From Escherichia coli (GTDB lineage: Bacteria; Pseudomonadota; Gammaproteobacteria; Enterobacterales; Enterobacteriaceae), in NCBI RefSeq assembly GCF_030013205.1, contig NZ_CP122648.1: 64,000 nucleotides of DNA, one strand, 5' to 3'. A program made the position numbers and the translations under genes. Of this stretch, positions 51,491 to 52,311 are shown one piece after another (position 1 is the stretch's first letter; each line of letters begins with the position of its first letter). Below the pieces are notes generated by a model. It was not told the origin of the DNA and did not search any database. It was given only the letters and a program-made list of their open reading frames with translations.

Positions 51491-52311
51491 TATTCAAAAC
51501 ACGCCAATAACCTCTTGATTTAATTGAAGTCGAAAATTTTAAGTCAAAAATCGTATAGCTTAACGTGTAGCTAAAAATGTTTGCTGCAAAAGTATACAAT
51601 TTTAACCGTTATGACTCCCTGTTATCCGTTATCAAGCTGGTGGATGATCATGGATAACCCGTTATGGGAATCCCCATATCGGCATCAGGCCCACCAGCGC
51701 GACGCATTTTTTTAATTTCGCGGGTGTAAAAATTTGACGGGGCGGGCGGTCCCATAAGCAATGGGGGGTAGGGATTTCGATCCCCCCTCCTGAATGCAAT
51801 TTTTCGTATGTGGCTGTGCGTCCACCAGCTACGCCGGAATGGGGTATTCCGTTTCAACGGAACAGGTATGACGAACATGATCGCACCTTCTCCCGAAAAC
51901 GGTGCGACCTCCATAGAGGAAATGCCTATTCAGATCCCCGGTGATTTTCACCATTCAGAATCTGGAGGGTGAGTTTTCCAGTTTTCCCCAATGGGGGATT
52001 CTGGAACAATCAACGGGTTAGCGATTAAGCTGGCGAGTAATTAAACTGCGAAAATTTCGTAGTTTGTGAATATATTCCGGCTTGCTGGTTAACAGTCCTC
52101 AGATGTGAGGGATGTAGCCAGCGCAATTTTGCGTCGTCGGATATATCAACAACTTAGCACAAAAATAAGTCAGGCAGATACAAACCTCAAATTTGAGGTT
52201 TGCTTGTTTATCAACGGGTAAGGATAATCATCTCCCCTTTAAAGCCCCTTCGAAGGGTTACCCGTAGGCTTAATGTAAGGCTTGGCTGTAGCCTTACCGA
52301 ACGCTCCGCTC

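Follow-up and report, generated by a model that had tools for sequence, protein, structure and literature searches.

A probable phiP27/HK97-type cos site in the hairpin-rich non-coding end of a chromosomal island beside yejO in Escherichia coli

The stretch of DNA analysed here, 64,000 nucleotides of an Escherichia coli chromosome (contig NZ_CP122648.1; 'the window'), carries in order MicF at 26.5 kb, nap, ccm, narP and the autotransporter gene yejO (48784–51375), followed by the left end of a mobile island. An earlier note had picked out a hairpin-rich non-coding segment at that end, 51640–52310, as a candidate structured RNA and had added, as a fallback, that it could be packaging-related or a recombination or origin site. 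The fallback appears to have been right in substance, since the best-conserved block of the segment is best read as a cohesive-end (cos) DNA-packaging site. Our reading, to which we assign a probability of about 0.78 as a whole, is that the segment is non-coding DNA acting in cis and forms the integrase-distal end of a 13.4 kb satellite of the phage-inducible chromosomal island (PICI) type at tRNA-Pro (proL) beside yejO, and that 51709–51790 is a cos of the phiP27/SfV/HK97 kind, most likely cut and packaged by the terminase of a P27-type helper (TerS, TerL and HNH protein).

The layout of the complete island is visible in ETEC4079, a porcine isolate with 99.9% identity to the window over the 1.5 kb compared (51400–52900), in which yejO is followed by 18 leftward genes and then by tRNA-Pro and yejM. 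The island genes include those for an integrase and an AlpA-family regulator (assigned to Phage_integrase and Phage_AlpA), a RepA-family helicase (AAA_25), a ProQ/FinO protein and PerC, together with a DUF2213 protein that weakly matches a head-maturation protease and a 679-aa protein with a lytic-transglycosylase domain, the C-terminus of which is lytic-transglycosylase- or tape-measure-like. No capsid, portal, tail, terminase or HNH gene was found among the island proteins. On the strength of a degenerate copy of the tRNA 3′ end and an arm repeat that recurs next to int, we put the length of the island at 13,375 bp, counted from the tRNA-fragment copy at 51477 to the tRNA end. The island thus combines an integrase, AlpA, a replication gene and a size in the 10–15 kb class with a specific att site (tRNA-Pro), as PICIs do. 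Three features delimit the segment (a strand is given where one was assigned):

51477–51500: degenerate copy of the 3′ end of tRNA-Pro (proL), the outer att boundary; TGGTCGCACGAGAGTATTCAAAAC, against the tRNA end TGGTCGGCACGAGAGGATTTGAACC in the near-identical strain L001

51552–51577: integrase-specific arm repeat of the GTAGCTA type, 25/26 identical to a stretch beside int at L001 27310–27335

52310–52489, minus strand: last island open reading frame (ORF), 59 aa, phrog_1561; its 3′ end and downstream DNA occur as repeated copies in sister satellites

At the position of the arm repeat, sister islands at other att sites carry ACTACACC repeats instead of the GTAGCTA type. The stretch 51477–51604 consists of the integrase-specific arm and the tRNA-Pro 3′ fragment, and the DNA common to satellites begins at 51605, which bears out the placement of the segment at the left end of the element.

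All five of the hairpin motifs quoted earlier are present in the sequence, one of them at a corrected position:

51751–51766: hairpin 1, CCCATAAGCAATGGGG

51763–51787: hairpin 2, GGGGGGTAGGGATTTCGATCCCCCC

52246–52257: CCCTTCGAAGGG

52276–52296: TAAGGCTTGGCTGTAGCCTTA

52181–52202: perfect palindrome CAAACCTCAAATTTGAGGTTTG, which had been placed at 52190–52211 and lies 9 bases further left

Hairpin richness of 51605–52310 is above chance: perfect stem-loops with a stem of at least 5 bp gave 15 calls (10 distinct hairpins) versus 4.9 ± 2.8 in 500 dinucleotide shuffles, and those with a stem of at least 7 bp gave 4 versus 0.31 (P ~0.004 in both cases). Folding of the whole segment gives z = –6.72 for the plus and –6.48 for the minus strand, and such near-equal values point to DNA palindromes rather than to a strand-specific RNA. 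The segment is also non-coding, as had been proposed. An 88-aa ORF (51648–51914, minus strand) has no Pfam or PHROG match, runs across the cos site and is broken in sister islands by a 250–281 bp insertion at 51809, while substitutions among homologues fall into the three codon phases as 18/15/13, that is, with no periodicity, and 2- and 3-base indels are present. Since there were no family matches and no codon periodicity in the substitutions, protein coding by this ORF and by a 54-aa ORF was ruled out.

A sensitive search of phage genomes with 51605–52500 returned a single kind of match, namely to the annotated 'cos-site' of the Stx2e phage phiP27 and to the ends of Burkholderia phage records. 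The 82 bases at 51709–51790 are 87% identical to phiP27 across its cos-site, and the left 45 of them (51709–51753) are identical at 45/45 positions. The same 45 bases are matched at the start or the end of several Burkholderia phage records: vB_SR1, vB_E438, vB_E174 and others begin or finish within a few bases of the aligned overhang. Phages of the phiP27/SfV/HK97 kind have their packaging genes in the order HNH, cos, terS, terL and a 10-base cohesive end, and the matching site of phiP27 lies between the HNH endonuclease gene and the genes for the small and large terminases. SfV, SfI and Burkholderia phages with Terminase_4 share the phiP27 type of cos. Four elements make up the core in the window:

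51709–51738, minus strand: conserved terS-side block TTTTTAATTTCGCGGGTGTAAAAATTTGAC, putative small-terminase recognition site, identical in phiP27 and 89% identical in the Burkholderia phages

51739–51748, minus strand: cos cohesive end GGGGCGGGCG (reverse complement CGCCCGCCCC), identical to the 10 bases annotated as the phiP27 cos-site and present as a single copy in the whole window

51751–51766: hairpin 1, beside the cos cut; most of 81 family members have an inverted repeat here too, though their stems differ

51763–51790: G/C-run motif GGGGGGTAGGGATTTCGATCCCCCCTCC (hairpin 2) at a cosQ-like position; the G-run and GATCRAATC are kept in phiP27 and HK97

The order of motifs is the same in phiP27: an A/T-rich block with CGCGGG, the cut, an inverted repeat, AGGGATTT and a C-run. 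The end of SfI, the packaging genes of which are homologous to those of phiP27, was determined by run-off sequencing as TGCCCGCCCC (PMC3636060), and the packaging strand of the window, CGCCCGCCCC, agrees with it at 9/10 bases. HK97 has an experimentally defined cos, in which the overhang is a 10-base 3′ one, TerS binds 15–29 bp downstream of the cut and the HNH protein gp74 stimulates cutting. The similarity to HK97 DNA is at the level of motifs only, and at that level the two sites share a G-run with GATCAAATC (GATCRAATC type), 34 bases, the cut, and then ACCCG with an A/T tract, as well as GACCGCC(C)GCC at the cut and, in helper-type phages, the same gene layout. The spacer from the G-run/GATCRAATC motif to the cut is exactly 34 bases in the window, phiP27 and HK97 alike, and 51709–51738 resembles in its position the TerS site of HK97, ACCCG plus A/T tract (PMC11331095).

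A 23-base pattern taken from the block recovered 103 IMG/VR contigs, which are 40–60 kb phages and 10–15 kb enterobacterial satellites. The aligned family (alignment A2, 81 members) was gathered with the 23-base pattern, and its shared features follow one order, namely the A/T-rich block with CGCGGG, the G-rich end, the inverted repeat, AGRSWTTT and the C-run, of which the last is nearly invariant. At the hairpin-1 position 58% of the 81 members fold with z < –1, on stems such as GGAGGC/GCCTCC, GAAGGC/GCCTTC and AGGGCG/CGCCCT; the covariation is modest (72% of cells paired versus 66% in shuffles), with the observed score reached by no shuffle. Among complete E. coli genomes, 57 without a P27-type terS carry the core at 95–100% identity amid unrelated flanks, which argues for selection. 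The phage version of the core occurs in 18 genomes, and a few of these have a second copy too, e.g. STEC276 with a P27-type prophage and a second copy. The assignment is thus carried by identity to a cos, by layout, by conservation across relatives and by the non-coding nature of the DNA; judged by these comparisons, the core acts as DNA, not RNA, and hairpins 1 and 2 are parts of the cos and no separate RNA.

A lambda-type cosN GGGCGGCGACCT with cosQ/cosB similarity was searched for as well, and the island aligned to the lambda cos junction only at noise level, while the same test gave a clear lambda-type cos in the O157 satellite L010. A second, lambda-type cos of the kind known from EcCICFT073 was therefore ruled out for the island. 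Satellite L010, an island beside phoQ in O157:H7 strain 2149, has a lambda-type cosQ-cosN-cosB converging on the terS 3′ end (L010:3028–3196), encodes capsid, decoration and small terminase proteins and has a second, inverted cosN-like copy reminiscent of cos1/cos2 of EcCICFT073. A core of the window's own type, 83% identical to 51677–51752, is present on a 10,790 bp circular 'plasmid' of E. coli Z1323HEC0475 (NZ_CP148328.1), which has genes for a primase-like protein, a prohead protease/capsid fusion and DUF1441 and may be an excised satellite caught in assembly.

If the cos is functional, its use would proceed along the following lines, where we predict, besides cleavage itself, which helper is used and what the Chi and integration host factor (IHF) sites described below do. 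A helper phage of the P27/HK97 packaging type would infect the cell or be induced, and the island would be excised and replicated to concatemers. The conserved block at 51709–51738 would be recognised by the small terminase of the helper, and the large terminase, together with the HNH protein, would cut at 51739–51748. Packaging would then run leftwards across the att junction and the int gene to the following cos. A head of P27 size (the phiP27 genome is 42.6 kb) would be filled by three copies of the island (40.1 kb), which suits multimer cos packaging as described for EcCICFT073. In phiP27-type phages the site lies between the HNH gene and terS, whereas the island has neither HNH nor terminase genes; their absence is to be expected, since a satellite borrows them. 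The island also differs from these phages in that its terS-side DNA is replaced by a satellite-specific palindrome and Chi sites. Because the cos retains the terS-side block of the helper, a redirecting protein such as Rpp is apparently unneeded. PDB sequence searches for such a protein with the 175-aa, 59-aa and 93-aa proteins gave nothing, and in the 175-aa protein the N-terminal helix-turn-helix alone resembles a small terminase.

Three Chi sites, all exact matches, accompany the cos core:

51636–51643, plus strand: Chi GCTGGTGG, oriented to stop RecBCD that enters the cos-cut end and moves left

51691–51698, minus strand: Chi in inverted orientation, not the active one toward the cos end

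51822–51829, minus strand: Chi oriented to stop RecBCD that enters the other cos-cut end and moves right

The sites at 51636 and 51822 lie ~100 bp left and ~80 bp right of the cut, both in active orientation, and could shield the two new cos-cut ends from RecBCD. A plus-strand Chi is found 68–273 bp left of the cos in 10 of 14 satellites of this cos type. Over its 12.5 kb, the island part of the window (51478–64000) has 17 Chi sites with no strand bias (8 plus, 9 minus), ~5-fold the density of the chromosomal part (1–51400), where 51.4 kb hold 14 sites, 11 on the plus strand and 3 on the minus strand. Such a density suggests that protection from RecBCD has been selected for in an element that is packaged in linear form and lacks a Gam-like inhibitor. 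The inverted Chi copies (51636, 51691 and 51822) also account for the predicted long-range stems of the segment.

The remaining features of the segment lie on both sides of the core, most of them to its right:

51663–51678: palindrome TATGGGAATCCCCATA, with inverted Chi sites on both sides, kept in satellites of either cos type

51835–51862: CGGAA/TTCCG/CGGAA triple forming two overlapping hairpins, the stems of which are invariant among homologues

51978–52021, plus strand: unit 1, hairpin CCAG..CCCC AAT GGGG..CTGG followed by the IHF consensus AATCAACGGGTTA

52045–52063: near-palindrome ACTGCGAAAATTTCGTAGT, part of a module that the phoQ-side O157 satellites share at 83% identity; their copy is a perfect palindrome

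52121–52157, plus strand: unit 2, hairpin GCGCAATTTTGCGT and then TATCAACAACTTA, an IHF-consensus match

52181–52222, plus strand: unit 3, the perfect palindrome CAAACCTCAAATTTGAGGTTTG and, after it, TATCAACGGGTAAG, which departs from the IHF consensus at one base; the unit also scores as a weak terminator on the plus strand

52246–52297: inverted repeats CCCTTCGAAGGG and GTAAGGCTTGGCTGTAGCCTTAC, just 3′ of the last gene of the island; a T-run follows neither of them, whichever strand is read

In the triple, which reads CGGAA-N7-TTCCG-N6-CGGAA, the middle arm pairs with either neighbour and only the first loop varies among homologues; it may act as a pair of switch-like hairpins or offer three half-sites to a DNA-binding protein. 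Each of the three units consists of a short hairpin, a spacer of 7–13 bases and ATCARCRRGTWA, which fits the IHF consensus WATCARNNNNTTR, and at least 8 different stems occur across satellites. Predicted IHF sites match this consensus exactly at 52008–52020 and 52144–52156 and with one mismatch at 52209–52221. The density of consensus matches is 2.3/kb in the terminal regions of satellites versus 0.14/kb elsewhere in the same satellites, a 16-fold difference. From 51604–51631 rightwards the segment is shared by sister islands inserted at three further places (beside smrA, inside comM and beside phoQ), and the conservation is mosaic, with breakpoints at 51686, 51809, 51992, 52122 and 52185, although hardly any variation is seen at 51806–51902, even between islands with differences in other parts. 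The interval from the cos to the small terminal ORF is occupied in sister islands by cargo genes for a 532-aa AT-rich protein (L031:6545–8143) and a 194-aa membrane protein (L031:4835–5419) or, in L066:1660–2365, a PerC paralogue together with duplicated copies of the small terminal ORF. The 532-aa and 194-aa proteins had no PADLOC match and no significant Pfam match, and identification of the cargo as defence genes was dropped for this reason. Given the cargo at this place in sister islands, the 500 bp at 51810–52310 look like an empty cargo zone with boundary elements; this is a variable zone in which the short palindromes and the three units most likely serve as DNA architectural or boundary elements.

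Several observations weigh against the packaging interpretation. The near-identical ETEC4079 carries the island copy only and has no resident P27-type helper, and a helper would thus need to come by infection. The small terminase of P27 (Pfam Terminase_4) has no detectable sequence similarity to that of HK97, so that 51709–51738 is assigned as the TerS site by position and conservation alone; carrying over the HK97 TerS-DNA contacts by protein homology was rejected on the same grounds. The invariance of the terS side in alignment A2 was imposed by the 23-base search pattern. The best-conserved Chi (51691) lies 41–49 bp to the left of the cut and faces the 'wrong' way for an end made by cos cleavage; in satellites of the lambda-type cos, Chi is kept beside the palindrome and not around the cos. 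Flanking of cos by Chi hence fails as a general rule, and the link between the two in the window is hypothetical and may be incidental. The IHF-like motif includes the CGGGTTA core of the origin-like iterons of sister islands and may therefore bind another protein. The role given here to 51810–52310 is one that we infer. Finally, the cos could be a recent relic, with cleavage, packaging and transfer being predictions.

The motif that suggests IHF binding also invites the reading that the segment is, or contains, the replication origin of the island, with initiator-binding repeats alongside the IHF sites. In its favour, iteron origins typically include IHF-consensus sites, CGGGTTA forms part of the motif ATCARCGGGTTAG, similar copies of it stand in both orientations at 51655, 52011, 52212 and 52258, and sister islands have an origin-like module at exactly 51809 (three copies of GCGGGTTA, an AT-rich spacer and three copies of TAACCCGC). 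We consider an origin here very unlikely, however, as this iteron and AT-rich module is missing from the window island, the scattered copies are single and not clustered about an AT-rich stretch, the obvious iteron array (7 copies of TTGACACWYT) is outside the segment at 52521–52776, and PICI origins usually follow the rep gene, which here is 7 kb away. Proximity to the att boundary (30–130 bp), the repeats CCGTTAT/ATAACGG and a 14-bp palindrome could instead mark 51605–51700 as an attP arm that binds the integrase or the AlpA excisionase. This is still less probable, because the sequence from 51604–51631 onwards is common to islands at the three other sites (smrA, comM and phoQ), the arm repeats of islands at other sites are of the ACTACACC and not the GTAGCTA type, and the palindrome module is inverted in the phoQ-side island; integrase arm sites within the segment were rejected since islands with different arm repeats share it. 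For the DNA beyond the cos block, the absence of any function of its own is a possibility to which we give some credence while doubting it: on this account the DNA would be an empty accessory-gene hotspot made up of recombination scars, duplicated gene 3′ ends and leftover terminators. The mosaic conservation with the sharp breakpoints listed above fits such a hotspot, as do the cargo of sister satellites (the 532-aa protein in L031, the PerC paralogue and duplicated small ORFs in L066) and the recurrence of the small-ORF end GTTACCGC in tandem with the units in L118 and L119. On the other side, the units keep their hairpin, IHF motif and 7–13 base spacer across at least 8 stem variants, the IHF consensus is enriched 16-fold over the rest of the satellites, and 51806–51902 hardly varies among otherwise differing islands; together these argue for selection on at least some of the elements.

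A structured RNA, as first proposed, found no support: both strands fold alike, Rfam is silent, and conservation is modular rather than collinear. In its present form this reading holds that the segment or its right-hand 500 bp is transcribed to one or more structured non-coding RNAs, e.g. 3′ untranslated region (3′-UTR) hairpin RNAs of the leftward operon that may be bound by ProQ/FinO. It can draw on the dense hairpins and strong folding z, on unit stems that vary yet stay paired (CCTCA/TGAGG, CCCC/GGGG, GCGCAA/TTGCGC, TTTCCAC/GTGGAAA and GCTCA/TGAGC), on the toleration of a few G-T pairs on the plus strand only (e.g. at 52045–52063), on the ProQ/FinO protein encoded on the island, and on the position of the segment directly 3′ of the last gene, after which there is no clear terminator. 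We nevertheless regard it as quite unlikely, given that the minus strand folds as well as the plus strand, that the most conserved block is a DNA site common with phage genome ends, and that the modules are shuffled, inverted and deleted among relatives. An Rfam 15 scan of 51605–52310, at the gathering score and at E up to 10, returned no family and nothing but one chance-level long non-coding RNA match, and the terminal regions of 10 sister satellites had no Rfam match; the segment does match an already known kind of element, in the spirit of one of the outcomes that the earlier note had named as refuting it, this being a phiP27/HK97-type cos and not an Rfam entry. ARAGORN found no tRNA or tmRNA in the window, and a scan of the segment gave no promoter-like site and one weak terminator-like site. 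The distinct sequences are too few for a valid covariation test. C4 antisense RNA and isrK, P4-type immunity RNAs, are carried by sister satellites near the regulatory end, at L066:9391–9576, L087:11924–12109 and L119:11814–11901, which is the opposite end of those elements; neither was found at the gathering score anywhere in the window island, with the portion that lies past the window (in L001) covered as well, and the island has an Icd-like pseudogene. The stem variation in the units and the ProQ/FinO gene leave a small probability for RNA, and none of the evidence at hand favours RNA over DNA. The hairpin-plus-IHF units are the sole part of the segment that could hold something new. That they and the CGGAA triple constitute an undescribed satellite-specific element, either an IHF-organised 'end organiser' for packaging or replication or a set of 3′-UTR hairpin RNAs handled by ProQ/FinO, is a long shot that we rate only a little above the transcribed RNA just discussed.

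Among known RNAs of other kinds, the enterohaemorrhagic E. coli small RNA Esr41 lies in O-island 43 and is unrelated, and an Hfq-CRAC supplement has no entry for the neighbourhood of the homologous O157 island. Retrons, group II introns, the large phage-associated RNAs GOLLD and ROOL, and guide RNAs of IS elements were dropped, as the island has no reverse transcriptase or transposase gene and there was no Rfam match.

The cos reading places the island beside satellites already established as carriers of a helper's cos (P4, the SaPIbov5 type and EcCICFT073), as a further case with a different cos family. SaPIbov5-type staphylococcal islands, which we take to carry the cos of HNH-dependent helper phages, offer the closest parallel in strategy: a terminase-less island with a copy of the helper's cos is packaged by the helper's TerS, TerL and HNH protein, as we predict for the window island, although SaPIbov5 belongs to another phylum and there is no sequence relationship. 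This strategy of an island with a helper cos has been described previously (bioRxiv 10.1101/2022.09.08.507074 and PMC6092414). EcCICFT073, too, is a PICI of E. coli that has int, alpA and a replication gene and is mobilised via cos, but its cos1/cos2 have lambda-type cosN and cosQ and an Rpp-specific cosB (PMC6092414, PMC6739421), whereas the window island has a cos of the P27/HK97 type, no lambda-type cosN and no detectable Rpp homologue. The satellite P4 carries the cos of P2 (bioRxiv 10.1101/2022.09.08.507074) and resembles the island in having the helper's cos near one end with a variable cargo zone adjoining; it differs in cos family and gene set, the window island being without sid, psu and delta and without detected C4/CI RNA.

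If the cos works, the island would be an enterobacterial counterpart of the SaPIbov5 strategy, a PICI of classical size without capsid or terminase genes that would ride HNH-dependent phages of the P27/SfV/HK97 type simply by carrying their cos. In Proteobacteria this packaging type has so far been tied mainly to capsid-forming PICIs. Likely vehicles for this island family would be the Stx2e-type phages of porcine E. coli. The 82-base element is a concrete, defined object, and the proximity of Chi to cos and a variable end rich in IHF-consensus sites offer ideas on how small satellites might survive RecBCD and where cargo might enter. Current concepts are unchanged by the finding.

Two arrays of repeats near the segment were noted in addition. 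The sister module at the point matching 51809 measures 250–281 bp (L087:347–630, L005:3205–3486, L002:4410–4691 and L066:794–1045), and its three copies of GCGGGTTA, AT-rich spacer and three inverted copies of TAACCCGC have the layout of a classic iteron-type origin. At 52521–52776, between the 59-aa ORF and the 175-aa gene with the small-terminase-like N-terminal helix-turn-helix, TTGACACWYT (consensus GGTTGACACTTTTTCGCG) occurs seven times, in six direct copies and one inverted copy, with no further match in the 64 kb window, in which 0.4 would be expected. Sister O157 satellites have their lambda-type cos at this position, and the array is a candidate origin or protein-binding array.

Elsewhere in the window, a 500-aa ORF of odd composition at 61190–62692 (minus strand) overlaps the annotated Icd-like pseudogene and an intergenic stretch of the reference annotation and is probably spurious. 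Rfam matches in the chromosomal part are to naRNA4, a REP-derived nucleoid-associated RNA (22772–22848), and to MicF (26509–26602), both of them ordinary core-genome features.

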